This document shows, piece after piece, positions 431 to 63,632 of a stretch of 64,000 nucleotides of DNA. This DNA is from a virus. The notes beneath the pieces were generated by a model. It was not told the origin of the DNA, did not search any database, and saw nothing but the letters and a program-made list of their open reading frames with translations. Position 1 is the first letter of the stretch, and each line of letters begins with the position of its first letter. The stretch spans positions 37,256 to 101,255 of the IMG/VR virus record IMGVR_UViG_3300035670_000078; one strand, given 5' to 3'. Position numbers and translations under genes: made by a program.

Positions 431-434
431 AATA

Positions 435-477
435 AAGACGCCGCAGAGGTAAAAGACCTGCGGCGTCTTACTTTTTG
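435..477 (+). terminator. intrinsic terminator
   Basis: AAGACGCCGC(AG)AGGT-AAAAG-ACCT-GCGGCGTCTT stem followed by ACTTTTTG. Confidence 0.75.
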
Positions 478-498
478 TGTAAAAACCAAGGTGTGGCG

Positions 499-2627: not shown

Positions 2628-2629
2628 AA

Positions 2630-3232: not shown

Positions 3233-3246
3233 GAATCACTCCTAAC

Positions 3247-3277
3247 AAAAACGGCCAGCACTGAGGCTGGCCGTTTT
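3247..3277 (-). terminator. intrinsic terminator
   Basis: Inverted repeat AAAACGGCCAGC/GCTGGCCGTTTT with T-run on - strand, downstream of 3301-3780. Confidence 0.7.
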
Positions 3278-3300
3278 CACGCCGGCGGCGAGGTTAAAGC

Positions 3301-3780: not shown

Positions 3781-3851
3781 AGTGGGTTCCTTCGGCGTGT
3801 AAAAAGCCGTTCTTGGATTAGGTTAAGGCGTTCGCCTTGTTCCTGCTGCGG

Positions 3852-3880
3852 AAAATGCGACTGATAGCGTGTTCAGTCAA
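3852..3880 (-). promoter_or_regulatory. sigma70-like promoter with overlapping palindrome
   Basis: - strand TTGACT-17 nt-CATTTT; inverted repeat GACTGA-N8-TCAGTC at 3859-3878. Confidence 0.45.
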
Positions 3881-3890
3881 TAGAAAATCA

Positions 3891-5456
3891 CTAAAACGAC
3901 ATGCGAATGCCGTCCAAACTTTCTACGAGAGCCGGGTTGTGCGTGATGACAATCACTGGACGGGTCTGCCCGATCCTAGACAATAGATCGCAAGCGGCCT
4001 GCACACCGTCGGTATCGAGGGCGTCAAACGCCTCATCGAAAACCAACGTACCCTTTGAGCGGGACAGGGAGGCCAGGGCGAGGAGCAGGGAAAGATCAAC
4101 GCGACGGCGCTGCCCACCTGACAAAGCCTTGTACCCCTGACCACCGCCGTACCCGTCGATCTGGATCTCGATCTTGTCTTGGATCTTCCCGTTGCCGAGT
4201 TCTGTCTGAGCAGACAGACCGAGCTTCACCCCGGTGCACAACCAGCCAAGGTAGGTGTTGGCAAGCTCCTCAAGAGAGGACAGTGCCTTCGACAAAATAC
4301 GGGAGCGCACACCGCGCACGCCGAGGACCCTAATGGTGTGCTCGAGAACGGTCGCCTCGTCGGTCACGAACTCGAGGTCGAAGTTCAGGACGTTGATAGC
4401 CTCCTGCTCGACCTTGAACTGCTCACGAAGCTCGGCCAGCTTCTTACGGACACTCTCAGTCTGGGCGGACGTGGCCTTGGCGATCGTCGCCTGCAGCTCC
4501 CTCAGGCGCGCGTCTAGCTCCTCGACCTCCTTATTGGCTTCGAGCATCTCCGTGCGGCACTCGTCCTCAATGCGAACGAGCGTGTCTGAGGCTGCCTTGA
4601 GGTCGTCGTCCTGTTTCTTCAACAGGTCAGCAGGGATCGGCTGCTGGCAGGCATAGCAGGTGCCGTTCGTGTGCTTCAGCTTCGCCGTCGAGAGGAGACT
4701 GACCTGAGCCTTCGACTGGCTGATCTTCAGTAGCAGGTCATTATTTCTACGGCTGAGTTCAGTGCGGCGGCTCATCCTCTCAGAGACCTCTGCTTTGACG
4801 GCATCGAGGTCAACGTCGGCGTCGATGCCGCTCTTGGCGAGGATGTCCTTGAGGCTGATCGCCTGATGCTTCAAAGACTCGATCTTCTGCTGCGCGACGG
4901 CGATGTCGGTCCGCACACCGTTCATCCGAACCTGCACAGCCTGAAGCTCCTTCTTCGCATGGCTGGCGGCGTCATCGAAGACGGCGACGCCGATGAGCTT
5001 CTCGAGCAGACGCTTTCGCTCGGCGTCGGTCGCCCCAGAGAAAAGGGCGGCGTCGGAGCTTGAGAAGACATGCGTCCGCCTCCACGTCAGGAGGTCACCG
5101 ATCTCGACTTCGAGAGCGTCTTGTGCTTTGGTGTTCGTCTCGAATACGACCGGCGGCTTGCCGGTGTAGTTCCAGGTGAGCTTCTGGGATCGTTGAGATC
5201 CGCGAGTGACCTCCAGCTTGTCGGTCACGAGTCGGACCTCGCACCTCGTAGTCGTGGGCGCCGCGTCGCGTAGAGTCTTGCCCCAAGCTGCCCATGCAGG
5301 TGCTTCTAGACACCTTACAGTCTTTCCTGTACCATTCTTACCTGTGACGGTAACAATTCCTGTCTCCGGGAACTCAACCGAGGTCTCCGGGAAGTCAGCG
5401 AATCCTCTAAACCAGACCTTTTTTATAAGCATGAACTTTGAATCCTTCTTCGGCAT
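3891..5456 (-). CDS. sbcC: SbcC/Rad50/gp46-like SMC ATPase
   Basis: Walker A GKNGTGKT, coiled coils around CYAC zinc hook, signature LSGGQRRR, Walker B VFDE, ITH; start 5456 or 5432. Confidence 0.92.
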   Translation of the reverse strand: MPKKDSKFMLIKKVWFRGFADFPETSVEFPETGIVTVTGKNGTGKTVRCLEAPAWAAWGKTLRDAAPTTTRCEVRLVTDKLEVTRGSQRSQKLTWNYTGKPPVVFETNTKAQDALEVEIGDLLTWRRTHVFSSSDAALFSGATDAERKRLLEKLIGVAVFDDAASHAKKELQAVQVRMNGVRTDIAVAQQKIESLKHQAISLKDILAKSGIDADVDLDAVKAEVSERMSRRTELSRRNNDLLLKISQSKAQVSLLSTAKLKHTNGTCYACQQPIPADLLKKQDDDLKAASDTLVRIEDECRTEMLEANKEVEELDARLRELQATIAKATSAQTESVRKKLAELREQFKVEQEAINVLNFDLEFVTDEATVLEHTIRVLGVRGVRSRILSKALSSLEELANTYLGWLCTGVKLGLSAQTELGNGKIQDKIEIQIDGYGGGQGYKALSGGQRRRVDLSLLLALASLSRSKGTLVFDEAFDALDTDGVQAACDLLSRIGQTRPVIVITHNPALVESLDGIRMSF

Positions 5457-6267
5457 CAGCCCCGTGCGTGAAGGCCGAGCAACAACTTATACTGTAAATG
5501 TAGCTTTGGCTACAGGAACAGACCCCTACAAAGAGATAGCTGCGCTTAGCGTGAAGCTGCCTCCTTTGCCAAGCATTCCTGCTCAAGCTAAGGCCTGGTC
5601 CGGCGTCGCTCACCTACTTGAGATTTGGCAGCAAGCGGCCAAGTGGACCAACGTTCCAGAGGACAAACGGAAGAAGGCCGAGTGGGTGTGGAAGAACAGC
5701 CTCAAGCGAGAGAACACGCAGGCTGCCATGCTTGAGGCCGTCGAGCAGCTTCACAAGCTAAGGGAGGAGGGCAGCCAGCTCTGTCCCCTTCTATGGGCGT
5801 GGTGGAGAACCAACCAGCTCCTCGAAGAGGGAAAGAGCGGTCTCGAGTTCCTCTCGGTATGGTCGGCGGCCGCACTCAAGTCGCCGAAGGTGCGACGCTG
5901 GTTCTATCAAGAGGTGGACCAGGAGAACATCCTACGTCGTCAAGTGTGGCCGGACTCGGTGTCAACTCTACTTGACATAGTAAAAACATTTGAAGCTGAG
6001 GCTAAAAGACTGTCAGATCAAGCTGCGCATAAGCAACTTTGGTTAGAAAAGTACAGTCAACCTTACAAAGATACGCTTGAGTCAGCTCAGTTCATACAAA
6101 AGTCGGCTCAAAACCGTGTCAATGAGCGTGCTGCGCGGTACGATCTTGGTGTTTGGTTGTCAGCTAATCTTGTTGAGTATCTTGGTCTTGCAGGAACTAG
6201 CTCTAGCGTTGTTCAAAAGAGCTTGCAGTCCAGCACCCGGCTGCGTAAGACATCAAAGCGTCGCTGA
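5431..6267 (+). CDS. hypothetical protein upstream of replicative helicase
   Basis: Trp-rich helical ORF filling the gap before DnaB; start uncertain (ATG 5431 or GTG 5551); 5206 start rejected because it overlaps sbcC. Confidence 0.65.
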   Translation: MNFESFFGISPVREGRATTYTVNVALATGTDPYKEIAALSVKLPPLPSIPAQAKAWSGVAHLLEIWQQAAKWTNVPEDKRKKAEWVWKNSLKRENTQAAMLEAVEQLHKLREEGSQLCPLLWAWWRTNQLLEEGKSGLEFLSVWSAAALKSPKVRRWFYQEVDQENILRRQVWPDSVSTLLDIVKTFEAEAKRLSDQAAHKQLWLEKYSQPYKDTLESAQFIQKSAQNRVNERAARYDLGVWLSANLVEYLGLAGTSSSVVQKSLQSSTRLRKTSKRR

Positions 6268-6293
6268 GCTTCAACCCAGTCAGGAGAGTCTGA

Positions 6294-7673
6294 GTGGACT
6301 CGTATAACTTTCATCCGCAATTCGAGCAGGCGGTTCTTTATTACCTTTGCTCGGAAAAGAAGTTCTTTCATCTGTACCACAAGTACATCCAAGCGGATCT
6401 ACTTCAGACAGAGTCGGCAAAGCTGGCCCTATCGGCCGCCAAGTCCATCTACAAGGACATCTCTGATGCCCCCGGCAGCACCACGATGGTTCTGCAGCGC
6501 GTCAAGAGTAAGGTCATCAGCGGCGACGTCACCGTTGACGCATACAATGAACTGTCGTTCTACCTCGACGACGTGCCGAACATTTCGGACTGGCGGGCGG
6601 TGGGGAGCGAACTGACCCCGACCTTGAAGGAATCGCTCCGTCACGCCGCCGTTCTCAAAGCCATCGAGTCCCGTCAGGGCAAGAAGTCGATGGCCGATAC
6701 TGCTGCTTACATGCAGGAGATCGAGAACATCGGTCAGTACGTCGAGGGCAAAGCGCCCCTGTCATTCGATGACATCGACGGCCGTGACGCCTTTTCCGCC
6801 CTCGAGGAAATGATCGACATCGGCCGTATGCGGACAGGTATCGACGAACTCGACCTGACCCTGGGCGGCGGACCGCCGTGCGGCACGCTCTCGGTATTCG
6901 TTGCTCGCCCCGGCGGCGGTAAGAGCATGTGCCTGTCGCAAATCGGCGCCCATGCGTTTGCGGCTGAGGGCAAGCAGGTAGCGCACGTCACCATTTCCGA
7001 GGTACCCGCCCATATCATCATGGCGCGTGTGCTCGCCCCGATTCTCGGCACCAAGATTTCGGACATCACGCGCGAGCCGCCTGAGGCTCGCAGGCTGTGG
7101 CAGGCTTATAAGCAAAGGGCAGACGCGAACCTCGGCGGCTACAAGACCTTCGAGTTCACGTCAAAGACGCCGGTCAGCCAGATCCGCGCTGAGGTGATGG
7201 GCTTCTACCAGAAGAACTTCAAGTCCAAGCCGGACGTCATCATCTTCGATTATCTCGGCCTGTCTTCGTCGCTCAAGGCACCGAAGGGCGCCAATTCCTA
7301 CACGCAGGGCGAATATATCACCGGCGAGCTGCTCGACTGGGCGCAGTCGGAAAAGGTCTGGATCTTCACCGCCGCGCAGAGCCAGCGCATGAAGGCCAAG
7401 GGTGGCAAGGCGATTATCGGCCTCGATGATATCGCCGACAGCTACCATATCGTCCGCATCGCCGACATCGTCATCACGATCAACACGGACGAGGACGAGC
7501 CCGGAGTTTTTCAGGGCAGCTTCCATTTCGCGAAGAACCGCTTCGGACCGTCGGGCGGAACGACCAGCCGAAATCCCGTCAACTGGGATACCGGCCTCGT
7601 CGCGCCGTCGTCGTTCTTCCAAGCCAAGGCCACCCGTTACTGGGCAGACCAGCAGCCCTACTTCGTGAACTAG
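6294..7673 (+). CDS. dnaB: DnaB/gp41-like replicative helicase
   Basis: Walker A ARPGGGKS, ISE, IIFDYL, TAAQ, IADS, AKNRFG. Confidence 0.9.
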   Translation: MDSYNFHPQFEQAVLYYLCSEKKFFHLYHKYIQADLLQTESAKLALSAAKSIYKDISDAPGSTTMVLQRVKSKVISGDVTVDAYNELSFYLDDVPNISDWRAVGSELTPTLKESLRHAAVLKAIESRQGKKSMADTAAYMQEIENIGQYVEGKAPLSFDDIDGRDAFSALEEMIDIGRMRTGIDELDLTLGGGPPCGTLSVFVARPGGGKSMCLSQIGAHAFAAEGKQVAHVTISEVPAHIIMARVLAPILGTKISDITREPPEARRLWQAYKQRADANLGGYKTFEFTSKTPVSQIRAEVMGFYQKNFKSKPDVIIFDYLGLSSSLKAPKGANSYTQGEYITGELLDWAQSEKVWIFTAAQSQRMKAKGGKAIIGLDDIADSYHIVRIADIVITINTDEDEPGVFQGSFHFAKNRFGPSGGTTSRNPVNWDTGLVAPSSFFQAKATRYWADQQPYFVN

Positions 7674-8601: not shown

Positions 8602-9834
8602 GTGAAGTACAGTAGTGCAACAGGTTTTGTTCGTATCGACGGTGTCGAGTCGCTTTTCAACGTCTCCGAAGACGGAAGTATCTACCTCTCCGTGAAGCTC
8701 GACAATTTCGACAAGGCGATCGAGTGGCTCAAGAGCCTCGAGGGCGAGGTCGCTCAGCCAGTCGAGAAGGTTGAGAAGCCTAAGAAGGTCAAGCCGCCTG
8801 AGCCTGTAGTCGAGGCACCTGCGCCAGCCCCGGCACCCGAGCCTCCAAAAGAGACGGTCGAGATCCTCTTCAACGTCGTCGAAAAGGCCGTGCCCGAGCC
8901 CGTGAAGCTGCCCGAGCCTGTGGAGGTCGTCGCGGCGGTTGTCGAGCCTCAGCTTGATCTCTTCAAGCCTGCGCCAGAGCCCGAGCCAGTGGAGCCCGAG
9001 CCCGAAAAGTTCGAGGCGCCGTCCGAGACCTCTGACGCTCCCCAGCCGAAAAGGCGTGGTCGCCCTCCCGGATCCAAGAATAAGGTGCGCGAGGCTCAGG
9101 CGTCAGAAGACGCTCCGCTGAGGATTCCTGCTCCGGCAAAGCCTATCGAGAGCCTGCCCATTACTAAGCTGGTGACTCCGGCCAAGATCGAGGAGGTGCG
9201 GAAAGCCACCGAGGTTGGTCTCGTTATCCGCCGGGTCCTCAAGATGGAGAACACCTCTTTCCCGATTGAGGTCCGTCCTGCTGGCCTTGGTTGGTCGGCA
9301 AGCTGCCCGCAGCTGCCTGATCTCCAGGGCGTCGGCACGAACGAGACGGACGCGGTGAACGACCTCCGCATGGCTATCGCTGACTGGCACAGCGCTATGC
9401 AGAAGCAGGCCGCCAAGTCGGCGGCTGCTGCGGCCGCTGGCCTGCCTGTCGAGCCTGAGCCGGTCAAGCTCACCCCGAGGGAGAAGATGGTCACGATCCA
9501 TCCCACCCCCGAGGCAGCGCAGGCCATCCCGCCCGTGTACGATTCGCTCGAGGACCTCGGCGACGAGTGCGTGAAGTGTCAGAGCCCCGGTGAGGCTGTC
9601 CGTCTCGCCATCTTCTTCCACTTCGACAACAACGCTGAGCATCTCAGCAAGCCCTACGAGGCTCTGCTCAAGTACACCGCGACGTACATGACGAGCATCT
9701 GGCCCCGCGTTCCGGCGCTTCAGGGCAAGAAGATCCGCTCGCCAGAGAAGCAGCTCGACCTCGCGCGCACGTACCTCGACCAGTACCTCCGCGTTAAGAA
9801 CGGCAAGTCGCCTGTCGGCAACGACGAGGATTGA
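8602..9834 (+). CDS. Pro/Glu-rich protein with AT-hook and HicB-like domain
   Basis: KRRGRPPGSKNK at 9049-9084; FPIEV..GWSASCPQLPDLQGVGTNETDAVNDLRMAIADW at 9259-9390. Confidence 0.7.
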   Translation: MKYSSATGFVRIDGVESLFNVSEDGSIYLSVKLDNFDKAIEWLKSLEGEVAQPVEKVEKPKKVKPPEPVVEAPAPAPAPEPPKETVEILFNVVEKAVPEPVKLPEPVEVVAAVVEPQLDLFKPAPEPEPVEPEPEKFEAPSETSDAPQPKRRGRPPGSKNKVREAQASEDAPLRIPAPAKPIESLPITKLVTPAKIEEVRKATEVGLVIRRVLKMENTSFPIEVRPAGLGWSASCPQLPDLQGVGTNETDAVNDLRMAIADWHSAMQKQAAKSAAAAAAGLPVEPEPVKLTPREKMVTIHPTPEAAQAIPPVYDSLEDLGDECVKCQSPGEAVRLAIFFHFDNNAEHLSKPYEALLKYTATYMTSIWPRVPALQGKKIRSPEKQLDLARTYLDQYLRVKNGKSPVGNDED

Positions 9835-9837
9835 GAA

Positions 9838-12834
9838 ATGCGCACGGTCAACCTCTACCCGAACCACGTAGACACAGCGCCCATTCTTCAGGATGGCGCT
9901 TGGCCTCTCAACGAGCCTAAGAAATCAATCTTCAAGGTCACCGCCAAGGGGGGTGAGAAGCTGGTAGGGTTGATCGGCGACGGTTGCACCATGTGCAGCC
10001 GCTCGAAGAAGCGCATGGAAGACACGATCCAGAAGCCGCGCCTGCTCCGGGGTAAGAAGCCGGAGCAGGGCCGCGTTCTGTGTGTCTTCAGCTACCTGAC
10101 CTACGGCGCATCGGTCGACAGCATGGTCAACCTCATCAGGAGCCAAGGCTTCGAGGGTGACCTGCTGCTCGACCTCTGCATCCGTTGCGGGCCGGGTAAC
10201 GTCACAGACAGTCAGATAAATCAGTGCGGAAACTACTTGAGGATGTCCTACAAGCAGTTCAAGCCTGACAGGATTCTTTGCTTCGGAACGACCGCCGCCA
10301 AGACCGTCCTCGGTATGGCGGTGCCGTCGTGGACGAACCGTTGGTGCTGGACGACCATCCCCGCTGAGGCGGTCACGGACGACGATGGCGTCGTCTCCGA
10401 TAAGCGCGTGCCGGTCGTGTCCTTGATGGACCCCGCCAACTTCAATAAATCAAAGGTGCACCGGGAAATCATAAGCGCCGAGGTCGATTGGGCGCTCACC
10501 TCCAATTTCCCGGACCACCGCCCTGTAGGAATCGCCTACATCCTCGAGACCGAGGATGACCTGCCTCTTCTCGAGCAGTGGGTCGAGCGTGTCAGGCAGA
10601 CCACAGGATGGATTGCCTACGACGTCGAGACGAACGGGGTCATGCACAACCCCGACTTTTCCATCATCATGTGCTCGGTCGCGGCCACCTCTATCCCGCA
10701 CGTCATTCTGTGGGACCAAGAGTCTCTCAAGAACAAGGCGCTGCTCGACCGGCTCACCGAACTCCTGACCGACGGAACGATCAGGAAGCGTGGGGCGAAC
10801 GAGAAGTACGACGCCCTCTCGTGGCTCATCTGGAAAGGTATAGAGGTAACGCCCGTCGATGGTGACTGCCGCCTTGAGATGAAGCTCGCCAACGCCGATT
10901 CAAAGGCCGACCTCGAATCCATGGGCTTCTACGTGGGCGTAAATGCGCACAAGTCGGAAGCGAAAGAGTGGATGGAGATGGCCGTGGTGAAGGCCAAGGA
11001 GGACCTCGATCCTGACCTTGAGGGCGTCAACGCCAAGGCCTACGCCTACAAGTACCTGCCTTCCGAGGTTCTCGCCCGATATAACGGGCTGGACACGAAG
11101 GTCACCGCCGCTGTGTGCCAGCACGCACGGTCATCCCTCGGGCCGCTGGAAAATACGCTCCACCGCCTCGTCCTTCCCGCCTCTGAGCTATTTAAGCGGA
11201 TCGAGTACAAGGGGATGATGGTCGACACCAAGGGCATCGAGGCGGCCCGCCTTTTCCTCGAGACCGAGATCGCCAACCTCGCCCCGAGGTTCGCACGGGA
11301 AAACCTCGACCCCGACAAGCCCGAAACGATTCGAGCGTGGCTTGAGCACATGGGGATCGCGTCGCCCATCAAGACCGACACCGGGCTCGCCAGCACGAAC
11401 GCCAAAGCCCTCAAGCTCATCGAGGGCAAGAACGAGCTGATCGCGTCGATCCTGCATCACCGCAAGCTCGCTAAGCTGCTGTCGAGCTACGCCGATACCC
11501 TGCCCGGATATATTCGGGCCGACGGTCGGGTGCACCCGAGCTTCCTTCTGGATGGCGCCCGGTCGGGCCGATTGAGTTGCATCGCAGGCGACTGTGAGAT
11601 GCTTACAGAGCACGGCTGGATTCGCATGGCTGTGCTCAAAGAGCTTCTCGCCTGGAAGAAAGTACATACCGTCACACACCAGAATAAGTGGCAGCAAGTT
11701 GTTGATTGTTGGTCTAACGGTGTCCGGCCTACGGTGGTTGTCAAAACGTCAGGCGGAAAAGAGATCCGCGTTACGCCTGACCACAAGCTCTACACATACG
11801 GCTCCGGTGCAGGGTCGTGGGTAGAAGCTAAGGACGCCAAGGGTAAGCTGGTTCTGGTCAACAACATGGTAAACAAGTCGGCGGCCAGGGTTCCGGCCTA
11901 CGACAAAGTTGTCGATATAGTTGATGCGGGAGAGTGCGAAGTTTTCGACTTCACTGTCGAGAACGATCATTCGGCGTGCATCGAGGGCCTCTTCGCCCAC
12001 AACTGCACGTCGCCCGCCCTGCAGACAATACCTTCACGCGGAGACATGGCTAAGCTGATCAAGAACTGCTTCGTGGCCTCTTCCGGCTACAAGCTGGTCG
12101 CGCTCGACTTCTCCATCCTCGAGATCCGTATCGCAGCGGTCCTGTCAGAGGACCCTGACATGGCCCTCGCCGCGCAGACCGACTTCCACACGGAGACAGC
12201 CAAGTCGCTCGCCCACCTCGCTTGGAACATGACTGCGGAAGCTGTCGAAGCGGAGATCAAGGGCGGCAACAAGAGCAAGCGTGACGTGTCCAAGACCCTC
12301 GGCTTCGCGATCCTTTACGGCGCCGGTGCTCAGAGCATCGCCGAGCGGGTCGGCTGCTCTGAGGCTGCAGCCGACAAGCTCATCAACGGCTTCCTCACGA
12401 AGTACAAGCGGCTGAAGGCGTGGATGCGCGAGCAGGTGGACTTCGCCCGCAAGCACGCTGCGGTGGATATCCCGTGGCTCGATGGTTCCATCGGGCGCCG
12501 CCGCCCTCTGCTTAACATTCACTCAGCTGACAAGGGTGAGCGGGGTAATGCTGAGCGCGCTGCAGTAAATAGCCCTATTCAAAGCCTTGCTAGCGACATC
12601 TGTCTTAGCTCCGCTGTTAAGATTGATGCTTGGTATAGGGCTAATTCTATCCCTGCAAACATAGTTTGCTTGGTTCACGACTCAATTATTTCTGAGGTGC
12701 GCGAAGATTTTGTTGACGAGGTCACCAAAACTAAGGCACACATGATGACGTCCTGGCCGACAGGACTTGTCCCGCTCAAGGTTGAAGCTGAAATAGGCTA
12801 TGCCTGGGGCTCAATGAAGAAGGTGGATGTGTGA
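9838..12834 (+). CDS. polA: family A DNA polymerase with N-terminal UDG-like domain, 3'-5' exonuclease and intein
   Basis: ExoI AYDVET, ExoII NEKYD, ExoIII YNGLD, SGRLS, motif A DFSILEIR, motif B KRDVSKTLGFAILYG, NSPIQS, motif C VHDS. Confidence 0.95.
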   Translation: MRTVNLYPNHVDTAPILQDGAWPLNEPKKSIFKVTAKGGEKLVGLIGDGCTMCSRSKKRMEDTIQKPRLLRGKKPEQGRVLCVFSYLTYGASVDSMVNLIRSQGFEGDLLLDLCIRCGPGNVTDSQINQCGNYLRMSYKQFKPDRILCFGTTAAKTVLGMAVPSWTNRWCWTTIPAEAVTDDDGVVSDKRVPVVSLMDPANFNKSKVHREIISAEVDWALTSNFPDHRPVGIAYILETEDDLPLLEQWVERVRQTTGWIAYDVETNGVMHNPDFSIIMCSVAATSIPHVILWDQESLKNKALLDRLTELLTDGTIRKRGANEKYDALSWLIWKGIEVTPVDGDCRLEMKLANADSKADLESMGFYVGVNAHKSEAKEWMEMAVVKAKEDLDPDLEGVNAKAYAYKYLPSEVLARYNGLDTKVTAAVCQHARSSLGPLENTLHRLVLPASELFKRIEYKGMMVDTKGIEAARLFLETEIANLAPRFARENLDPDKPETIRAWLEHMGIASPIKTDTGLASTNAKALKLIEGKNELIASILHHRKLAKLLSSYADTLPGYIRADGRVHPSFLLDGARSGRLSCIAGDCEMLTEHGWIRMAVLKELLAWKKVHTVTHQNKWQQVVDCWSNGVRPTVVVKTSGGKEIRVTPDHKLYTYGSGAGSWVEAKDAKGKLVLVNNMVNKSAARVPAYDKVVDIVDAGECEVFDFTVENDHSACIEGLFAHNCTSPALQTIPSRGDMAKLIKNCFVASSGYKLVALDFSILEIRIAAVLSEDPDMALAAQTDFHTETAKSLAHLAWNMTAEAVEAEIKGGNKSKRDVSKTLGFAILYGAGAQSIAERVGCSEAAADKLINGFLTKYKRLKAWMREQVDFARKHAAVDIPWLDGSIGRRRPLLNIHSADKGERGNAERAAVNSPIQSLASDICLSSAVKIDAWYRANSIPANIVCLVHDSIISEVREDFVDEVTKTKAHMMTSWPTGLVPLKVEAEIGYAWGSMKKVDV
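11578..12003 (+). mobile_element. mini-intein (142 aa) in polA, no homing endonuclease
   Basis: Starts CIAGDCEML, block B VTPDHKL, block F VFDFTV, ends AHN followed by +1 Cys; removal restores GRLS-CTSPALQTIP. Confidence 0.93.
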
Positions 12835-54711: not shown

Positions 54712-56205
54712 TCAAGCGTAGCCGACGTTGTCCAGGATCCAGTGCTTCTGGGGAACGCCCATTTTGAGCGCGCCGAAGAGCATGATCATGAACTGGGTCG
54801 TGGCGCTGCGCGACACGGTGATCGGGCGGCGGGTGAGGTCAAGGAAGTTGACCCACTCCATGCAGTCGCGGCGGTTGGTGAGGATGTACACCGGCGACTT
54901 CTGCGGGCGGTGCTCGTTGATCTCGTCGAAGCGGGTGTGGGTACCCGAGGCAACGAGGTTGCGAGCAAAGCGGCCGACGAACCAGTACTCGTTCTGGTCA
55001 GCCGGGGCGCCAGCGCCCGTCGCAACGTCAGCGCGGAAGACGTTGTAGTAACGGATCGAGTTCGTGCCGTAGGAGGGCACGCCCGCGTCGTTGATGGTGA
55101 AGCGGCTGGAACCGCCCGCCGCCGAGTGCGAAACCGCCGCCGAAGCCGCGAAGTTGACCGCGCCCTCGTCGCCGATGCCTTCGACGATGTAGTGGAAGTC
55201 CTTGCCCGTCACGTCGGCGGTCTTGAACTTCGAGCCGGTGACCGACGCCTGGTAGGCGATGGACGGCGCGATGACAGCCGGAGCGCCGTCGCCCTCGGGG
55301 CGCGAGATCGGGTGCTCGCGGTGCGAGAGGAAGGGGATCGACAGGATGGGGATATTCCCGTGAGCCGTCGAGACGAAGAGCTTGCCGACGCCGCCGTAGA
55401 TGTCGCGCTGCTGCGAGATCTCCATACGGCCGTACTTGCTGAGCATCTGGTTCTGGAGGTTCGTCCACACGCGGTGGTCGCACCAGATCTCAGTGGGCTT
55501 CGCGTAGTACGGAGGATTGGTCATACGACCAATGATCTCCTGAAGCTCCTCGAGGGAGGTCACGGAGCCTTCGGCATCGCGGAAGTTCGACGGAGCGCCG
55601 GAGCGGATCGACTTGTAGATACCGTCGTACTCGAGCGGGTTGATGGACGAGTCGCCGTGGAAGAGGAAGGACTCCATCTTCTGGACGAGTTCCATCATGC
55701 CGTCCATCGAGGCGATCGAGATCGCCTGGGGCGACGGGTGCATCATGCCGGTCATCGACGCGACGTCGGTGATCTGGCGGAAGGTCGCGGCGTACTTGAC
55801 GCGGACAACCTTACGCTCGAACGACGACTCGCTGATGGCGGGGACGCCACCTTCGCGGACGAACGGGTTCAGCGCTGCCGAGCCGTAGCTGCGGCGAACG
55901 TTGTACTCGTGCATCGGGGACGAAGCCGAGGTCTTGGCGAGGAGCTTCCAAGCGACAATGTGCTCATCGTCGAAGGTCGCGTTGTCCAGCATGGGCTGGA
56001 TGGACTGGGGAACGAGCGGGGCGAACTCGCCGCCGGGGAGCGTGCCACTGTCGTAGCCAACGCCCTGGAGCGGGTAGTTCACACCACCCTTACGGAGGCC
56101 AAGCATCGCCGCCGAGCGGAGAGCCTGGTTGAGCTTACGAAGCTCGCCGACGCTGGCGTCAAAGCCTTCCGGCGGCAGCCCTGCGAGAAGATCCTGAGGA
56201 ATCAT
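54712..56205 (-). CDS. major capsid protein (SPO1/A511-like)
   Basis: 497 aa, strongest codon bias, PQSI..HEYN..FVREGG..VKY..E..LFHGD..LEYDGI; follows protease and scaffold. Confidence 0.9.
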   Translation of the reverse strand: MIPQDLLAGLPPEGFDASVGELRKLNQALRSAAMLGLRKGGVNYPLQGVGYDSGTLPGGEFAPLVPQSIQPMLDNATFDDEHIVAWKLLAKTSASSPMHEYNVRRSYGSAALNPFVREGGVPAISESSFERKVVRVKYAATFRQITDVASMTGMMHPSPQAISIASMDGMMELVQKMESFLFHGDSSINPLEYDGIYKSIRSGAPSNFRDAEGSVTSLEELQEIIGRMTNPPYYAKPTEIWCDHRVWTNLQNQMLSKYGRMEISQQRDIYGGVGKLFVSTAHGNIPILSIPFLSHREHPISRPEGDGAPAVIAPSIAYQASVTGSKFKTADVTGKDFHYIVEGIGDEGAVNFAASAAVSHSAAGGSSRFTINDAGVPSYGTNSIRYYNVFRADVATGAGAPADQNEYWFVGRFARNLVASGTHTRFDEINEHRPQKSPVYILTNRRDCMEWVNFLDLTRRPITVSRSATTQFMIMLFGALKMGVPQKHWILDNVGYA

Positions 56206-56236: not shown

Positions 56237-56989
56237 TCAGGCCTGAAGCCCGAGGTTGTAGCGGGTGTTGACGTCGCTCGGGAGCGCGCCGGAGAAGATC
56301 TCACCAAGCGCGAAGCGAAGCTCCTGCTTGCGGTCCTCAGCGGTGCCACCCTTGGCGATGTTCTCGTTGCAGAACTGCTCGACCTTGGTGAAGAGAGCAA
56401 GCTCGCGGTCAACTTCGATGTTGCCGGTGGCCTGCGCAACGACACCGTCAGCCGCGCCGCGAGCCGCCTCAGCGGGGTGCGGGACGACGGCGGTCGCCTG
56501 GGTCGACTTCGGGCCGCCCTTCGTGATGGCCTCAAGGCCCTTACGAAGCTCGGCAACAGTGTTGGTCAGCTCTGCATTGCGGCGGTCCATCTCGGCGAGG
56601 GTCGTGAGGACCGTCTTCTCGATGTTGCCGAGGGCGGTGAGACCCTTGACGAGCTGGGTGTAGTGGCGGTCCGACTGAGCCGAGAGCGCCGAGACCGAAG
56701 CCTCAATGTCAACGAGAGCCGACGCGCTGTCGACGTCCTCGTTGCCAACGAAGCGGGAGCCGCCCTTGACGATCTTGGCCGGGGCTGCGGGGGCAACCTC
56801 AGCGACAAAGGACTTGGCCAGTTCGTCGATGAGCTTGCTCATCTCGGCCTGACCGATAATGGGAGCCGCGCCGAGGTCGTCCTCGAGCTGGCCCTTGTGG
56901 ATCTTCTCGACGCAGATGGCTCGGGCTTCATCGTCGCCGAGCGTCGGAAGGAGCTTCTGAAACAGCTCGCTCGCCTTTCCCTTGATCAT
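56237..56989 (-). CDS. scaffolding-like protein
   Basis: Lies between protease and MCP; coiled coil; many hydrophobic-x-K-[GS] motifs. Confidence 0.7.
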   Translation of the reverse strand: MIKGKASELFQKLLPTLGDDEARAICVEKIHKGQLEDDLGAAPIIGQAEMSKLIDELAKSFVAEVAPAAPAKIVKGGSRFVGNEDVDSASALVDIEASVSALSAQSDRHYTQLVKGLTALGNIEKTVLTTLAEMDRRNAELTNTVAELRKGLEAITKGGPKSTQATAVVPHPAEAARGAADGVVAQATGNIEVDRELALFTKVEQFCNENIAKGGTAEDRKQELRFALGEIFSGALPSDVNTRYNLGLQA

Positions 56990-57861
56990 GGTTTTCCTGC
57001 CTTGTTTTGGGGTCCGACGCGAAGGCCCTTCGCCGTCAGGGACTGAACGATATAATCGAAAACACTTTCTGCCTGTGACCAGGTAAGTTCCTGCGACCAG
57101 GTCTTGGCGATTTGCATCACCAATTTCTCGCGATCAATTGATTGGGCACCTTGAAGAGACTGCGCAACCAATGGAGCAATCTCACCAACGTAGCCGGCAC
57201 CCTGCATGGGATAACCAACCTGCGCTTTGGTGATGGTTGCACCATTAGCTGACATCATCATGGGCTCCCACCAAGAGTCATGATTTCTTGGAGCAGCGGT
57301 AACCGCAAGCCACTTTACGCGGCCTTTTGCGATACGCTTCCCGACGCGCTGCTTGACGCCGCCCTCGATGGAAAATCCAATCGAGCGCTGGGCACCAGCC
57401 CGCTTCATAACTCTGGCTTTCTTGTAAGTGACGCGGCCCATCTTATCTTCAAGATAGAGGTCAGCGACGACCTTAGTCGCCTTGACCATCTGCCCCGTGA
57501 TCGCCGACTTGATCTCAGTCAGCTCAATGCCCACCGGGTAGCCGATGGTATTGACCACTCCGACGGGATGCTCAAGCAAAATCAGCCCGTGGCCCTTTTG
57601 CCCGCCCTTACCGATGAAGTAATCCCACTCGAGACCTTCCTGATCGACGATGTCACCATCCTCGTCAGGCGCCTCAGACGTGGCGATTCCAGAAATGCGG
57701 CCAAGCCTCGGCTTGGTCTTAGTCCCCTTGGAAAAACCTTCGATCGTTACCGAGGCCGGCGTCCAAAGACGGAACCGGTCCTCGTCAAGAAAGATCGAAG
57801 AGTCAAACCCGGAGGAAAGACCGCCGAAGCTAACAAGCTGTGGTTGTGCAGCAGTGTTCAC
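56986..57861 (-). CDS. prohead maturation protease
   Basis: GIATSEAPDEDGDIVDQEGL, LLEH, GFSIEG, AVTAAPRN. Confidence 0.85.
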   Translation of the reverse strand: MNTAAQPQLVSFGGLSSGFDSSIFLDEDRFRLWTPASVTIEGFSKGTKTKPRLGRISGIATSEAPDEDGDIVDQEGLEWDYFIGKGGQKGHGLILLEHPVGVVNTIGYPVGIELTEIKSAITGQMVKATKVVADLYLEDKMGRVTYKKARVMKRAGAQRSIGFSIEGGVKQRVGKRIAKGRVKWLAVTAAPRNHDSWWEPMMMSANGATITKAQVGYPMQGAGYVGEIAPLVAQSLQGAQSIDREKLVMQIAKTWSQELTWSQAESVFDYIVQSLTAKGLRVGPQNKAGKP

Positions 57862-57908: not shown

Positions 57909-59366
57909 TCAATTACCAACTACAGCCTTAGCGTCATCTTCCGTATCAGCTTGCTGGTTGGCGAGCTGATCTTGGATGTAGGCGGTGTAGAGGGCATTGA
58001 GAGGACGCTTCGAGACCGGGTCATCCCAGGGCTCGAGGCCGCGCTCAAGACGAAGCTCGTTCGGTGAGAGGAACGAGGAGACCGCCTTGAGGTCCAGCTC
58101 GATCTTCTTCTCTTCCGTGACCGCATCAAAGCCTCGGAAGGTGAGCCGGTATCCAGGCCAGTGAGGAGCAATGAGGAACTCATTGATCCAGCGCTGGATA
58201 GTCCGCATGAGCGGACGAAGGCCACGCTCCTTAGAGGCGATAATCCGATCAGTCGGAGAAGCCGAGCCAACCTGCGTCCTCTGGTTCTCCGTTCCGAAGA
58301 TGTCGCCCAGCTCGGCGGGGTCCATCTGGAACAGAGAGCACAGCTGCTTCTTCAGGAAGTTAATCCACTCGGAGAACTCCATCTCCTTGTTGGTCGATCC
58401 GAGAGGGTGGACCTTCAAGTATTCTTGGAGCGCCGGATTAACCTGGAAGAGCGGCGTGCGACGCGAATGTCGGATACCGGAGGTGGAGACCTCGATAACC
58501 CGCTGAAGCGTCGACATGCGGTCATCGGAGCCGATGATACCGGCCTCGATCAGGTTCTGGGAGTGGATACCCGTCGTGTAGTTGACGGTGTTGTGCGTGA
58601 TGGCGTTGACGAGGGCGGCCACGATGGAGACCGCCTTCTCAAGCTCAGGAGCGCCGTAGCCATTCCGATACATGAAGGTCTCGCGGTTGCGGATCCACCA
58701 TGACATCGTGTCGGGCGAGAACTCATTGACGATGCGGTTGTTGAGGACCTGGATATATCCGGTGTCCCGGATATCCCAGCGCATGTCTTTGATCTGGCTA
58801 CGGTCGGGAGCCTTCCGTCGCATCGTGGTCGGATCGGCGGGAACGAAGGCGCCGGGCTTGCCGGTCGTCACGTTCATCACCTTTTCCACGTTGACCTGAT
58901 CATACACGAGCGTGTCGTGAACGATCGCTCGGAGGAACGACTCGAACCCACCGGGGAAATAGGTGCCACCGCCGTTCAGGATGAACTCCTGAATCTCAGC
59001 GATGGTGGACCTATCCCGGCGAGTCAGGACGCGCTTCTTGTCATCGGGAGTGATGACATGGCCGAGGCTGTACGGATCAGGCTGCTGAACAGCGAAGTCA
59101 GAAGCCTGATTCATACGGGTCAGCAGGATCGCCGCGATATACGGGATGCGGGACATCGCCCGCAGCGTCGTATACGAGAGGATGCCCGTACCTTGATGGA
59201 TGTCCGACGGGAACATCGACTGGGCGGTGAGCCACATTGAGCTCATCGGGTCGAGGTTCGCCGCCTTAGGCGACGCCAAGCGCACTTCCCCGCCGGGCTT
59301 CAGTAGCTCCTTAGGGAGATCGCCCTTGGCGATGGTCTCAGAGCTGTCGGCGGTTTTGTCTGTCAC
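57909..59366 (-). CDS. portal protein
   Basis: DTLVYDQ, DPTTMR, NGYGAPELE, KEMEFSEW..LFQMDPAELG, SKERGLRPL, PNELR. Confidence 0.92.
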   Translation of the reverse strand: MTDKTADSSETIAKGDLPKELLKPGGEVRLASPKAANLDPMSSMWLTAQSMFPSDIHQGTGILSYTTLRAMSRIPYIAAILLTRMNQASDFAVQQPDPYSLGHVITPDDKKRVLTRRDRSTIAEIQEFILNGGGTYFPGGFESFLRAIVHDTLVYDQVNVEKVMNVTTGKPGAFVPADPTTMRRKAPDRSQIKDMRWDIRDTGYIQVLNNRIVNEFSPDTMSWWIRNRETFMYRNGYGAPELEKAVSIVAALVNAITHNTVNYTTGIHSQNLIEAGIIGSDDRMSTLQRVIEVSTSGIRHSRRTPLFQVNPALQEYLKVHPLGSTNKEMEFSEWINFLKKQLCSLFQMDPAELGDIFGTENQRTQVGSASPTDRIIASKERGLRPLMRTIQRWINEFLIAPHWPGYRLTFRGFDAVTEEKKIELDLKAVSSFLSPNELRLERGLEPWDDPVSKRPLNALYTAYIQDQLANQQADTEDDAKAVVGN

Positions 59367-62300
59367 GAGAGCTTACCTTTGACGTCCACGTAGCGAGCGC
59401 GGAGAGCGAGGGGTCCCTTCGCCATGCGAAGGTAGTGGGCTTGGCTTCGGACTGAGGCGGGGGCGAAGGCTAGGTCCTCGGCGAAGTCTGAGAAGTCACC
59501 AACTGACTCCTTGATATATTCATCAAGTTCGTTGGTCGGCACAAGACCTTTCGCAAGCCAAGCGTCGAGAGGGTCGATCGCCGACTTACCGGTCTCGACG
59601 AGACCGGCGACAGCCATGTTGGCCTTCTTGATCTCGTCCTTGCTCACCTCGGGCTCAGCCTTCTCCACCTTCTTGCCCGTGGCATCGGCAAGCATGGACT
59701 GAGCGCGCTTCCTAATCCCAGCCTTCACCGAGTCGGGGATCTGGGTACCCTCGAGGCGGGCGAGAGCGTTGCGGAGGTGAGGGAGGTCAACCTTTCCGTT
59801 CTTGTCCTTATAAGGAAGGTGACGGAGCGACCGGGGCGTGGTCTTGCCCTCACCATCCTTCTTTCCGCCGGACTCGACGTAGAGGAAGGCAGAGTCGGGC
59901 AGGTCGTTGACATAGGCGGTCGTCCAGACAGCCTTGCGCACCGGCTCGATCTCGTTGTCCTCCTCGGCAAGCTTGAGGACCTCGTTGTAGTCGCGGTTGA
60001 GAACCGCAACGCTCATGGCCTTCATCACGTCGTCGCTAAGCTCGCCAGCCTTCGACCGGCGAAGAGCGTTGACGTAAGCAGCCTGAGCCTGCGCACGGAT
60101 AAGCTCGTGCTCGGGCTGCTTGGTTCCCCAGTCAGCAAGCTCGACGGAGGACTTCACGACCTTTTCCTTATGGCGCCACTGCTTACACGACCAGTACTTG
60201 GCGGTGAGGATGTCCTTGCCCGCTGCCGTGTCGCAGCCGTGGCGGCTGCGGAAATTCTTGCGGCGCTCGGGATCGTCGCGGCGGATTTCCATGTTGGCGT
60301 CGCCAAACCGGATCACGCGCGTCTTGCCCTGAGCGTTGCGAGCGTTGACGACAAACTTCTTCTTGCCGTAGCCGGGCTCACCCTGACGGATGCGGCGGGG
60401 CTTGTTGTAGTCGTCGGGGATGCTGTCAGCCTTCACGACATCGACGTGGGTCGTCATGTCGGTGGCCTTGATGATCGACGGCTCGTTGACCGAATCGTCC
60501 TCCCACTCCTCGCAATCCTCGCAGCCTTCGCACTCAGCGCAGTCACCTTCCGTCTCAAGGAAGGGCTGGTGGTACTCGAGGAGCATCTTCTGGAGCTGAT
60601 CGATACCGAGGCTGCCACGGCGGCCGGTCCCATCGTGCGCGACGTGAAGCATCTGCCCGACGCGATCCTCGATGGAGACAAAGCCGTCGACGAACTTCTC
60701 GCCCGTGTGGATCGGGCAGTGGAACTTCACGCCCGGCGTCACGATGTTGGCGAAGTGGTCGCTCTCGACAAGCGAGAGGAACGCCGTCTTGTCGTAGACG
60801 TAGCGCGCCCGATTATCCCCGCGAGCCGGGGACAGCCGTGCGAGGAACTGGCCGCCCTTCTCGATCGCGTCGTCCAGCACCGCTGCCTTTGAAGACAGCG
60901 AGTTCTGGCCAGGCGTGGTCGACTTCTGTACAGCAGTCGCCGTCGTGAAGCTTGACGTCGGCAGATCGCTTGAAGTTGTAAGAGTCTGAACAGGAGAGGA
61001 TTTCTCGGCCTCGGTCGGAGAGCATGTCTGGGTTCCTTTATTGATCTTGTGCTTCTTTGACTGAAGCGTCTGAAGGATGCGCTGGATATCTGACTCGCGG
61101 CCCTCGATCGTGCCGTAAGCCTTTCGAACGGTCATCTCAGCGCGCTTGAGGTCCTCGGGGTCCGTCACGTCGCGCTCATCCCGCTTGATCTCAGCGCGGA
61201 TCTGCTCCTTCGGGTTTGCGGTCGAGTACGGGTCGGCGGCGCGCTTGAGGTCCTCGAAAGCCTTCGGGAACGCCTTGGCAGCCCCGAGATTCTCGAGGTA
61301 ACCCATCGCGATGCCAGGCGGGCAGTACGACATACCCTCAGGGCAGGGAGGATGGCCGAACTGGCGGGCGACCTTATCGGAGGCCTTGCGCACGCAAGCA
61401 GCTGCCTTGGCCATACCGTCGTTGGCGATGTCGAACTTAGGCGTCTTCGACAGATAATCGGCGCACATGATGGCCGCATTGGCGTGCATCATGGTCTCGC
61501 CATCGAAATGACCGACGCCGGCCTTCTTGATGAGCTTCTTAACCTGCGAGGGCTTGGCGTTGAAGAGCCTTCCCTCACCGGATTGACGCCGAGAAGCGAC
61601 GTGCTCAGCGACAACGGGCTCATGAACCGAGGCCATGTAGGCGTGCCCACGAGGGTGGGCGAACATGAAGTGGGCTTTGTCAGGGTGCTCGACGTCTTCC
61701 GTCGAGCCTCCCTTCTGCAACCCGGCCGTCGAACGGAGGAACCAAGCCGCTTTGTCGTGGTCAGCGGCCCGCTTGCCGAGGATATCGACCGTTCCGGCGT
61801 CATTTTCGGCCTCAGCGGCCTCGACACCCTGCTCGCAAAGCTCACAAAGCTGCTCATGGGCCGCGATCAGCTCGACCAACATGCCCTGAGCGTCGGCCGG
61901 CATGGCTCGAGGCTCGATCGAAACCTCATCGACGACGATTTGGAAGCCGCGAATGCGCTCGGCGAGCAGGTCAACGGCGTCAGCGAGGTCATCGTACTGG
62001 TCGCCGAAGAGCACATGGAGCTGCGGGAAGGTCGGGCCGGTCACGTTCCAGTGGAAAGACTGGGTGCGGTCGCGCAGAGCGATCGACGCGGTGAGGATTT
62101 CGCGCAGCTTGTCGGTCGTCTGGCCCTTAAAGAGGTCAGGATTGCCCGACTTCTTCATCTTACGGGCAACGTGGGTGGCCTCGGGGTGCAGCGCCAGCAC
62201 GTTATTGACGGGGTGACCGGTCTTCAGATGCACCAGCGCGGCCATGGCGGCTTCGCGGTCGGGGCTATCGGACTTGCAGCACTCAGCGAGGTACTCCTGA

Positions 62301-62704
62301 GCCTTCGCCATGGCGTCAGCGGCGCCCTTGGTGTCGTCATGGACCTTGGAATAACGGTTCCAATGGAACCGCTTGGTGTAGGAGCGGCGATCGCTGCCCT
62401 TATCATCCTTCCACATCAGCACGGGCTTCTTATCGATATCGCCCTCGGCGTCGATATCCACATGCTGGGGATGGGTTTCCTTCGACGGCTTATGGCCATC
62501 GAGGTCGTATTGAGCCTGCGCCTTCATCCAGGCATCGCCATCCTGACCTTTTTCAAAGTCGGGGGCGGCGCCTTTGGGGGCGGCAGTACCAACGGAGTTT
62601 ACGCCGTCCTTCACCTGGGTCCACTCCTTAGATGTGGAGGTGGGTTTCTCCCAGACGGAGCCATCGGCGCGCTGACGAACTGTACCTGCGGGATCTGCTT
62701 TCAT
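59363..62704 (-). CDS. 1113-aa multidomain putative capsid-internal polyprotein (degenerate TopoIB-like, Dps, DUF6321-like, DLPDSAF modules)
   Basis: Single ORF, GTGA-coupled to the portal; domain motifs recognised by eye (see findings). Confidence 0.8.
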   Translation of the reverse strand: MKADPAGTVRQRADGSVWEKPTSTSKEWTQVKDGVNSVGTAAPKGAAPDFEKGQDGDAWMKAQAQYDLDGHKPSKETHPQHVDIDAEGDIDKKPVLMWKDDKGSDRRSYTKRFHWNRYSKVHDDTKGAADAMAKAQEYLAECCKSDSPDREAAMAALVHLKTGHPVNNVLALHPEATHVARKMKKSGNPDLFKGQTTDKLREILTASIALRDRTQSFHWNVTGPTFPQLHVLFGDQYDDLADAVDLLAERIRGFQIVVDEVSIEPRAMPADAQGMLVELIAAHEQLCELCEQGVEAAEAENDAGTVDILGKRAADHDKAAWFLRSTAGLQKGGSTEDVEHPDKAHFMFAHPRGHAYMASVHEPVVAEHVASRRQSGEGRLFNAKPSQVKKLIKKAGVGHFDGETMMHANAAIMCADYLSKTPKFDIANDGMAKAAACVRKASDKVARQFGHPPCPEGMSYCPPGIAMGYLENLGAAKAFPKAFEDLKRAADPYSTANPKEQIRAEIKRDERDVTDPEDLKRAEMTVRKAYGTIEGRESDIQRILQTLQSKKHKINKGTQTCSPTEAEKSSPVQTLTTSSDLPTSSFTTATAVQKSTTPGQNSLSSKAAVLDDAIEKGGQFLARLSPARGDNRARYVYDKTAFLSLVESDHFANIVTPGVKFHCPIHTGEKFVDGFVSIEDRVGQMLHVAHDGTGRRGSLGIDQLQKMLLEYHQPFLETEGDCAECEGCEDCEEWEDDSVNEPSIIKATDMTTHVDVVKADSIPDDYNKPRRIRQGEPGYGKKKFVVNARNAQGKTRVIRFGDANMEIRRDDPERRKNFRSRHGCDTAAGKDILTAKYWSCKQWRHKEKVVKSSVELADWGTKQPEHELIRAQAQAAYVNALRRSKAGELSDDVMKAMSVAVLNRDYNEVLKLAEEDNEIEPVRKAVWTTAYVNDLPDSAFLYVESGGKKDGEGKTTPRSLRHLPYKDKNGKVDLPHLRNALARLEGTQIPDSVKAGIRKRAQSMLADATGKKVEKAEPEVSKDEIKKANMAVAGLVETGKSAIDPLDAWLAKGLVPTNELDEYIKESVGDFSDFAEDLAFAPASVRSQAHYLRMAKGPLALRARYVDVKGKLS
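61712..62125 (-). other. dps: Dps/ferritin-like domain within the polyprotein (aa 194-331)
   Basis: FHWNVTGPTFPQLHVLF...VDLLAERI...DAGTVD...HDKAAWFLRS. Confidence 0.9.
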
Positions 62705-62732: not shown

Positions 62733-63524
62733 TTAGTCCACCTGTTGCGCCTGAACGATTTGAAAAACGTCCCAGATCAGTTTGAAAATATCAACCTGAT
62801 ATTCAAAGACTGTAACAGCGTCGGGACCATTTTCGCACAGCTCGATCGTGGCGGCCGGACCATTCATCGGACCGTTGACGGCGAGGGAGTCAAACCCGCT
62901 CACCCAGACCAGCGTCCAGCTATCATTAAGAAGCATGAGGCGCGGCTGCGGCAGCTGCGGGAAAACCTCGCGCAGCTGCCGCATCAGGGGGCGGATGATA
63001 TTCACCAGCAAAGCATCCCGGACCGGATCGGTGCGCGCCCGGCGGCGCTTCTTGGGCAGCGGCTTTTTGGCGGGCGGGACCAGGGCGGCCGGCTCGCGCT
63101 CATCATGCGGGGCATGGGCGGCCCAAACCACATCCTCATATGAAGATACCTGGATGGGATCGAGATAGACCTTCTCCCCATACCAACGGCAAACGGCCAC
63201 ATGAACGATCCGCCACGCCTCAAGCTCATGCAGATGCGGGGGGATATCCTTCAGATGCGTTTGCCCCACATGCTGGCGAAGCCACCGAAGGGGATTGGAC
63301 GCCAACCGCCGAAGCTCCCCATCGGTGAGCATCGTGGGGGTATTGGGCCATTTATGCTTCCGGCCCTCCCGCCGCTCCTCGCGATGGCAAATATTGCAGA
63401 GCCCCCGGCTGTTGTAAAAACGCCCCGGCTTCCCCAGACCGCATTTGCGGCAAACGGGGCAATAGACGGGGAAAGGCCGACCGCCCAGATACGCGCCGCT
63501 CTTCCTCGCCTTCGAAACGCCCAT
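62733..63524 (-). CDS. hypothetical Zn-finger-containing basic protein
   Basis: CPVCRKC...GLCNIC; start uncertain (ATG 63524 or GTG 63560). Confidence 0.55.
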   Translation of the reverse strand: MGVSKARKSGAYLGGRPFPVYCPVCRKCGLGKPGRFYNSRGLCNICHREERREGRKHKWPNTPTMLTDGELRRLASNPLRWLRQHVGQTHLKDIPPHLHELEAWRIVHVAVCRWYGEKVYLDPIQVSSYEDVVWAAHAPHDEREPAALVPPAKKPLPKKRRRARTDPVRDALLVNIIRPLMRQLREVFPQLPQPRLMLLNDSWTLVWVSGFDSLAVNGPMNGPAATIELCENGPDAVTVFEYQVDIFKLIWDVFQIVQAQQVD

Positions 63525-63632
63525 GGGCGTTAGGGTGGCACGGGCGGGCGGAAAGCACAAGGAAACGGAAACAAGGCACCCCCACTAGGGCGAAGCCAAA
63601 AACGCGCACCCGCCCGGAGGGCAGGTGACCCG

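Follow-up and report, generated by a model that had tools for sequence, protein, structure and literature searches.

The final 64 kb of a 101-kb virus record in IMG/VR (IMGVR_UViG_3300035670_000078, positions 37,256 to 101,255; hereafter the window, meaning the whole stretch of 64,000 nucleotides that was analyzed) contain a long open reading frame (ORF) at window positions 59363..62704 on the minus strand, the strand that also carries all other window features described below. The encoded protein (P0001) is a multidomain head-operon polyprotein of 1113 residues, in which a degenerate relative of the type IB topoisomerases (TopoIBs) is split in two by an inserted Dps (mini-ferritin) domain. 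An N-terminal leader (residues 1-51; 62552..62704), which is conserved in the clade as judged from the invariant columns of an alignment of close homologues (A1), is followed by the first half of the TopoIB-like module (residues 52-194; 62123..62551), comprising a remnant of the N-domain, a conserved strand with the sequence R106-R107-S-Y109, the motif TGHP at the position of the first catalytic arginine (Arg-I), and strand β1. The Dps domain comes next (residues 195-327; 61724..62122), and then the second half of the module (residues 328-490; 61235..61723) with the β2-β3 hairpin and the C-terminal helices of the catalytic domain, while a phrog_7595/DUF5754-like module is found farther downstream (residues 764-843; 60176..60415). 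An earlier note, made by a model from the DNA letters, had described such a split fold. All the sequence strings it quoted are found at the places given for them in the translation of the ORF, and the location it proposed for the fold (61295-62482, residues 75-470) is confirmed, whereas the true extent is slightly wider, as delimited above.

The polyprotein gene lies directly upstream of the portal gene (57909..59366; phrog_12, E 2.6e-27), which is followed by the genes for a head maturation protease that presumably carries out the processing (56986..57861; phrog_1028, E 3.2e-15), a 250-residue ORF that by gene order occupies the scaffold position (56237..56989), and the major capsid protein (54712-56205), with the tail sheath further on. 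The placement directly upstream of the portal gene recurs at all five loci examined (the window, L001, L002, L004, and L005), including those of Dps-less homologues found in a scan of viral contigs (ORFs 5971-8868 in L002 and 5130-7598 in L004 and L005). Having many unrelated domains in one chain and adjoining the portal and head genes, the protein has the features of a polyvalent or head-cargo protein. Its architecture is shared by the close homologues P0002-P0007, and P0008 lacks the Dps domain. Annotation captures little of this: on the whole 1113-residue protein, Pfam recognizes only ferritin/Dps at residues 198-326, PHROGs adds phrog_3636 (Dps) and the phrog_7595 module, and the database names of six clade members say nothing beyond “hypothetical protein”. 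No prophage copy of a relative was found when A1 was used to scan the species-representative bacteria and archaea of GTDB. A tblastn search of residues 52-490 against 50,697 phage records matched only the Dps part, and only stand-alone Dps genes, so that the TopoIB-like flanks have no relative among the cultured phages searched.

The relationship of these flanks to TopoIBs emerges from profile comparisons and predicted structures. Pfam searches with either flank alone returned no family at E<=10, and the TopoIB family PF01028 gave no match to the whole polyprotein at E<=1 and nothing in a search of the phage record. A second alignment (A2) was assembled from two natural Dps-less domains together with the two flanks of the window protein, and its profile was searched against 1.84 billion (1.84e9) representative proteins. 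This search retrieved 281 proteins at E<=1e-3, and among those listed, most match both flanks in a single stretch. All ten of the matches that were scanned (E 1e-24 to 1e-7) carry PF01028 (Topoisom_I) above the cut-off, and two of them also hit Top1B_N_bact, one above the cut-off of that model. Aligned by hhalign with 13 PF01028-bearing proteins, A2 gave a probability of 99.9 and an E-value of 4.2e-31 over 270 columns.

The structural comparisons lead to the same family. An AlphaFold2 (AF2) model of the domain of a Dps-less homologue (L004:5307-6164) has a pLDDT of 93.8, and its top 22 Foldseek matches in the PDB consist entirely of TopoIBs (from human, variola, vaccinia, Leishmania, and D. 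radiodurans; E 2.4e-7 to 2.4e-4), with tyrosine recombinases ranking below them (E>=3.6e-3). With the structural aligner VIA, the 20 best rows are likewise all TopoIBs (Z 12.3-15.3), recombinases reach Z<=11.6 and fall below every full-length TopoIB, and the alignment to the variola enzyme covers 244-249 residues and spans both variola domains. In the AF2 model of residues 52-490 of the window protein (pLDDT 88.2), residues 66..422 match D. radiodurans TopIB (3m4a_A) with Z 15.3 and a root-mean-square deviation of 3.3 over 189 residues, a match that reaches across the Dps insert.

On the strength of the A2 profile matches, the hhalign result, and the AF2 structural match, the TopoIB-like order of motifs is attributed to homology rather than chance, and it is virtually certain, as far as sequence profiles and models can tell, that residues 52-194 and 328-490 are the two halves of one TopoIB fold. 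One could instead suppose that the flanks belong to two unrelated domains, or are the relic of a tyrosine recombinase, with a coincidental order of motifs. In line with this, the flanks lack a Pfam match, a search of the PDB sequences with A2 by hmmsearch found no TopoIB (there was a chance match to stathmin at E 3.4), and tyrosine recombinases also match the fold. This explanation is nevertheless refuted, and we give it practically no weight: in the profile search, PF01028 proteins match both flanks in one stretch, the hhalign E-value is extremely low, TopoIBs outrank recombinases with both structural aligners, and one domain of the AF2 model of the window protein spans the insert. The proposal that Dps splits a TopoIB fold has therefore survived the comparison that might have overturned it, since the naturally uninterrupted domain of the Dps-less homologue finds its best Foldseek and VIA matches among TopoIBs throughout.

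Although the fold has been retained, the active site has not. We aligned 155 domain hits to A2 and anchored the columns of the catalytic pentad on canonical sequences tied to 2f4q and 2h7f; 72 of the 155 read R-K-R-N-Y. The window protein instead reads P165 at Arg-I (62210..62212; TGLR to TGHP), P351 at the catalytic lysine (61652..61654; F-x-G-K to F-A-H-P), M406 at the second catalytic arginine, Arg-II (61487..61489; K-D-F-R-T to E-T-M-M-H), H451 at the His/Asn position (61352..61354), and Y460 at the nucleophilic tyrosine (61325..61327). These assignments agree with the earlier note, which held that the two arginines and the lysine were replaced while histidine and tyrosine remained. The degeneration extends to all 29 of the closest clade members (the clade has about 30 representatives): the lysine is lost in 27 and Arg-II kept in 23, and in eight, including the close relatives P0004 and P0005, the tyrosine itself has become Phe or His.

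Both the pentad and the loss of the tyrosine in relatives support the idea, also voiced earlier, that the module is catalytically dead, which we regard as very probable. With its pentad degenerate, the module is best described as a homologue of TopoIBs that does not count among the functional enzymes. From the retention of Y460 and H451, and from clade members that lack only the lysine (R-P-R-H-Y), one might argue that the protein still works as a topoisomerase or recombinase by means of an unusual active site, but with proline, proline, and methionine at three of the five catalytic positions, and with close relatives having dispensed with the nucleophile, such activity is most improbable. In a FastTree phylogeny of the match columns, considered for its topology alone, the degenerate clade is monophyletic with respect to the active outgroups. 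The clade also has an invariant signature of its own, indicative of purifying selection, from which the module appears to be functional rather than decaying.

All large inserts in the clade fall after node 137 of the hidden Markov model, which corresponds to the turn between β1 (T177-V179 in the window protein) and β2 (K343-A349), leading into the hairpin that once bore the catalytic lysine; the same loop region measures 27-32 residues in active TopoIBs (match columns 120-142). In the Dps-less P0008, L002, and L004, the N-terminal flank is joined straight to the C-terminal flank, and in the model of the window protein both linkers to the Dps domain (residues 185-190 and 331-334) have low pLDDT. 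The inserts themselves differ. The loop carries Dps in P0001-P0005, P0007, P0013, and P0016, Dps plus a phrog_7595-type module in P0006, the phrog_7595 module alone in P0019, and an InPase domain (PF18823) in P0021 and P0023. Since FastTree (again topology alone) separates one Dps clade, an InPase clade, and the P0019 event, at least three independent insertions have to be assumed. The β1-β2 loop is thus highly likely to be a site of cargo insertion, and the shared node, the directly joined flanks of the Dps-less relatives, and the poorly ordered linkers of the model all speak for the surface-loop position previously suggested for Dps. With its position far downstream in the window protein but within the TopoIB loop of P0019 and P0006, the phrog_7595 module behaves as a mobile cassette, and it is preceded in each case by an acidic stretch rich in C-x-x-C (about residues 716-735 in the window protein).

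The cargo in the window protein has the attributes of a complete Dps domain. It matches PF00210 at E 1.8e-18 (67.3 bits, cut-off 24.5) and Dps sequences in the PDB at E 9e-16, and residues 136-284 of the window model match Dps and ferritin structures by VIA at Z 15-19 (Z 17-19 for Dps structures). The ferroxidase ligands H218, H230, D245, and E249, aligned with those of solved Dps structures, are intact and are kept in all Dps-bearing homologues; their spacing of 12/15/4 is the canonical one for Dps. Because the ferroxidase site of Dps lies between subunits, function requires at least a dimer. The domain is 29-34% identical to the products of stand-alone phage Dps genes. A different fusion occurs in the related head module of L003, where a 419-residue ORF just after the portal gene (9755-11014, plus strand) has a PF00210 Dps domain (residues 206-332) within a homologue of the prohead protease; residues 25-171 and the C-terminal tail of this protein match the head maturation protease of the window (BLASTP E 1e-4 and 0.01). 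Given this embedding, Dps appears to have been routed to the head interior a second time.

How the cargo might be released is suggested by a short motif, [LIVMF]-x-K-[GAS]. It occurs 22 times in the polyprotein compared with 5.1 expected, a count reached in none of 5000 shuffles, and it is also enriched in the 250-residue ORF at the scaffold position (8 observed, 1.4 expected, 0 of 1000 shuffles) and in the head maturation protease (5 observed, 1.6 expected). The major capsid protein has LRKG at residue 37, and no enrichment was seen in the portal protein, the sheath, or six other large ORFs. As the enrichment is confined to head-interior proteins, the motif is probably the recognition site of the prohead protease. 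Two copies bracket the Dps domain: L-F-K-G at residues 191-194 (62123..62134), which is conserved in all Dps-bearing homologues and adjoins the N-terminal linker, and L-Q-K-G at residues 329-332 (61709..61720), which is conserved too, as I-Q-K even in the Dps-less P0008, and overlaps the C-terminal linker. Of the 29 clade members, 26 have the motif in the loop in a broader form, [LIVMFA]-x-[KR]-[GASN], compared with 10 of 126 active TopoIBs. All domain inserts have a copy on either side, and in P0006 three copies separate the two inserts. The pattern fits an origin in which cassettes were inserted at a cleavage site that was duplicated in the process.

Further conserved copies of hydrophobic-x-K-[GAS] are found at residues 554, 614, 744, 756, 849, 922, 1013, and 1025, at what appear to be the borders of other modules, with [IL]-E-K-G at residue 614 present in eight of eight homologues. 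Their positions suggest that the whole chain may be cut into modules. For Dps itself, the bracketing of the insert agrees with the proteolytic excision envisaged in the earlier note, and this support is circumstantial, the cutting itself being deduced; on balance, we place excision slightly on the probable side.

The reading that we favor, and consider reasonably probable as a whole, is that a dead TopoIB module carries a Dps domain that is excised in the head. Residues 52-490 would represent a TopoIB module of the poxviral and bacterial type (the remnant of the N-domain and the catalytic domain) that has lost catalysis and acts as the N-terminal carrier of a head-interior polyprotein. During head maturation, the prohead protease would cut at LFK-G (residues 191-194) and LQK-G (residues 329-332), and the double cut would free a Dps of about 138 residues inside the capsid. 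The freed Dps could then assemble and remove Fe(II) and peroxide beside the packaged genome, while the nicked TopoIB remnant would stay folded as a non-catalytic carrier that may still bind DNA or metal. An antioxidant role of Dps within the capsid is a more tentative element of this scheme than excision, and we rate it somewhat below an even chance.

Several points weigh against this reading. Enrichment is the sole ground on which the motif is taken for a cleavage site, just as gene position and motif content are the sole grounds for placing the protein in virions. Several copies of the motif lie within predicted helices, and a cut in the β1-β2 turn might destabilize the remnant. It is doubtful that the freed Dps would itself bind DNA, because the cleaved form would be without a Lys-rich tail. 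Finally, the clade modules have a median isoelectric point (pI) of 6.6 and a net charge of -5, compared with 9.75 and +14 in active TopoIBs, a difference that disfavors generic DNA clamping for most clade members.

The last point bears equally on an alternative in which Dps is never released. It would remain attached within the loop while the inactive TopoIB clamps duplex DNA non-covalently, thereby placing Dps, or a 12-mer nucleated by it, on the genome of the phage, either inside the capsid or during entry, and protecting this DNA against oxidation or nucleases. By transitive alignment, R106, R107, and Y109 of the window protein correspond to Q69, Y70, and Y72 of the variola enzyme, and N116-R117 to N79-R80, residues that contact the major groove in poxvirus TopIB; all five residues of the window protein are invariant in A1. 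In addition, the module is basic in the subclade of the window protein (pI 9.06, net charge +8), and Arg-II, as noted above, is kept in most of the closest clade members. However, the window protein lacks Arg-I, the lysine, and Arg-II, the residues that hold the scissile phosphate, most clade members are neutral or acidic, and the insert is flanked by flexible linkers with the enriched motif. We therefore judge the tethered arrangement unlikely. The earlier note proposed a DNA clamp or scaffold; going by charge, a carrier seems more likely than a generic clamp on DNA for most clade members, although the subclade of the window is basic.

A second alternative arises from the composition of the module, in which the clade has a median of 20 histidines per roughly 275 residues compared with 5 in active TopoIBs. 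Histidines have replaced neighbors of the former catalytic residues: H350, which replaces the glycine of G-K, is present in 100% of the clade members, H451 in 93%, and H164, H354, and H407 in 66-76%. Leading into β2 is a motif specific to the clade, H-P-x-[RK]-x-H-x4-H (residues 340-350; 61655..61687), which is found in 20 of 29 clade members but in none of 124 active TopoIBs. The remnant may contain a new metal site. Taken further, it could have gained a new function, with a histidine metal-binding or catalytic site that possibly participates in the handling of iron by Dps. The abundance, conservation, and clade specificity of the histidines are all consistent with this idea, whereas the occurrence of His-rich members both with and without Dps speaks against it, as does the lack of a match to a known metalloenzyme motif, although none was looked for. 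We consider this idea slightly less likely than the tethered clamp. A combination of the carrier and metal-site ideas, which we put forward as speculation and rate as less likely than not, is that the dead TopoIB of this clade serves as a programmable cargo holder: its loop would be a port for cassettes between protease sites (Dps, InPase, and the phrog_7595 module, acquired in at least three independent insertions), each of them released on head maturation, and the pocket of the former active site would have been relined by conserved histidines into a metal-binding or catalytic center.

Some other observations concern the surroundings of the polyprotein and TopoIBs elsewhere. Upstream of the polyprotein gene lies a 275-residue ORF (62733-63560, minus strand) with a zinc-ribbon-like N-terminus (C-x-x-C ... 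C-x-x-C-H); it keeps this position in L002 and L004, has no PHROG match, and may encode a regulator or a small terminase. Within the leader of the polyprotein (residues 1-45; 62570-62704), the motif P-A-G-T-x-x-x-R-A-D-G-S-V-W-x-K ... W resembles one that several homologues (P0003-P0008) carry near their C-terminal part, G-x-Q-x-x-R-K-D-G-x-Y-x-K ... W, and the two may represent a small repeated binding module. When the genomic surroundings of active phage TopoIBs were sought, a single-protein scan found nothing, and a scan with an alignment of five active TopoIBs yielded six loci with other architectures, for example within an SNF2 helicase, which are uninformative on virion placement. Among viral contigs, L007 is another case of a TopoIB involved in domain nesting: in an 850-residue protein (4384-6936, plus strand), a PF01028 domain (residues 540-682) separates the two lobes of a helicase, SNF2/ResIII on the N-terminal side and Helicase_C on the C-terminal side. 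In L009, a TopoIB-bearing protein of 710 residues is adjoined by two large proteins (39-3254 and 3254-4963, both on the plus strand), one of 1071 residues with a weak, sub-threshold match to an anthrax lethal factor-type zincin (25.4 bits, cut-off 27.4) and one of 569 residues with a PI3/PI4-kinase-like match; this block looks like a set of polyvalent effectors.

These results add an inactive but structurally intact branch to the TopoIB superfamily, and they raise the possibility that phages load unrelated enzymes into the capsid by nesting them in the loop of a carrier, between duplicated protease sites. If Dps is indeed released in the head, the virion would contain a resident antioxidant and iron scavenger, with a bearing on how virions survive oxidative decay. 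The layout of carrier and cassette could also be reused for loading foreign proteins into phage capsids.

The nearest known relatives of the carrier are the poxviral and bacterial TopoIBs (PF01028; for example 2h7f from variola and 3m4a/2f4q from D. radiodurans), with which it shares the two-domain fold (Z 12.5-15.3), the order of motifs, homology at the profile level, and the His and Tyr of the last two pentad positions. It differs from them in having P, P, and M for Arg-I, Lys, and Arg-II, in lacking a direct Pfam match, in its His-rich composition, and in the 133-residue Dps in the β1-β2 turn. Moreover, it is the N-terminal module of an 1113-residue head-operon polyprotein, whereas a TopoIB is a free enzyme of about 320 residues. 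In its overall build, the window protein resembles the phage-type polyvalent proteins (Iyer et al. 2017, J Bacteriol, PMC5512222), which are large and multidomain, have genes adjoining those of the portal and head, and are presumed to be packaged. InPase is described in that study as a domain of polyvalent proteins; its main text mentions neither Dps nor ferritin, and “topoisomerase” occurs only in its reference list. Unlike polyvalent proteins, in which domains are strung end to end, the window protein has modules nested in a loop between repeated copies of a motif. Our literature search found no paper that connects either Dps or TopoIB with polyvalent or virion proteins.

Capsid-internal proteins that are cut by a prohead protease are known from T4 (the internal proteins, IPs, and Alt, with gp21 sites) and from phiKZ (the inner-body proteins). 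The window protein is similar to these in that scaffold and internal proteins are enriched in a short motif that tail proteins lack, and in that cargo would be delivered into the prohead and cut there, which for the window is deduced from sequence. It differs in its motif (hydrophobic-x-K-[GAS] in place of L/I-x-E), in having a dead enzyme fold for a carrier, and in that its cleavage is a prediction. A link between a ferritin-superfamily protein and an HK97-type shell or a phage genome also has precedents, in the ferritin-like cargo of encapsulins and in stand-alone phage Dps genes (phrog_3636; Proteus phage Privateer and Synechococcus phage S-SRM01). A released Dps would parallel the former in particular, as encapsulins share the HK97 shell fold, but encapsulin cargo is directed by a C-terminal targeting peptide, whereas the Dps of the window is nested in another domain, and the stand-alone phage genes adjoin genes of nucleotide metabolism and not the head module. 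Finally, MrpR/YopR of SPbeta (8a0a and 8bj6), both of which are among the weaker fold matches, provide an example of a dead member of the same superfold that has been kept for a non-catalytic role, but these proteins belong to the recombinase branch and are free-standing repressors with no domain insertion. What is new here is the use of an inactive TopoIB clade as the cargo-bearing module of head polyproteins.

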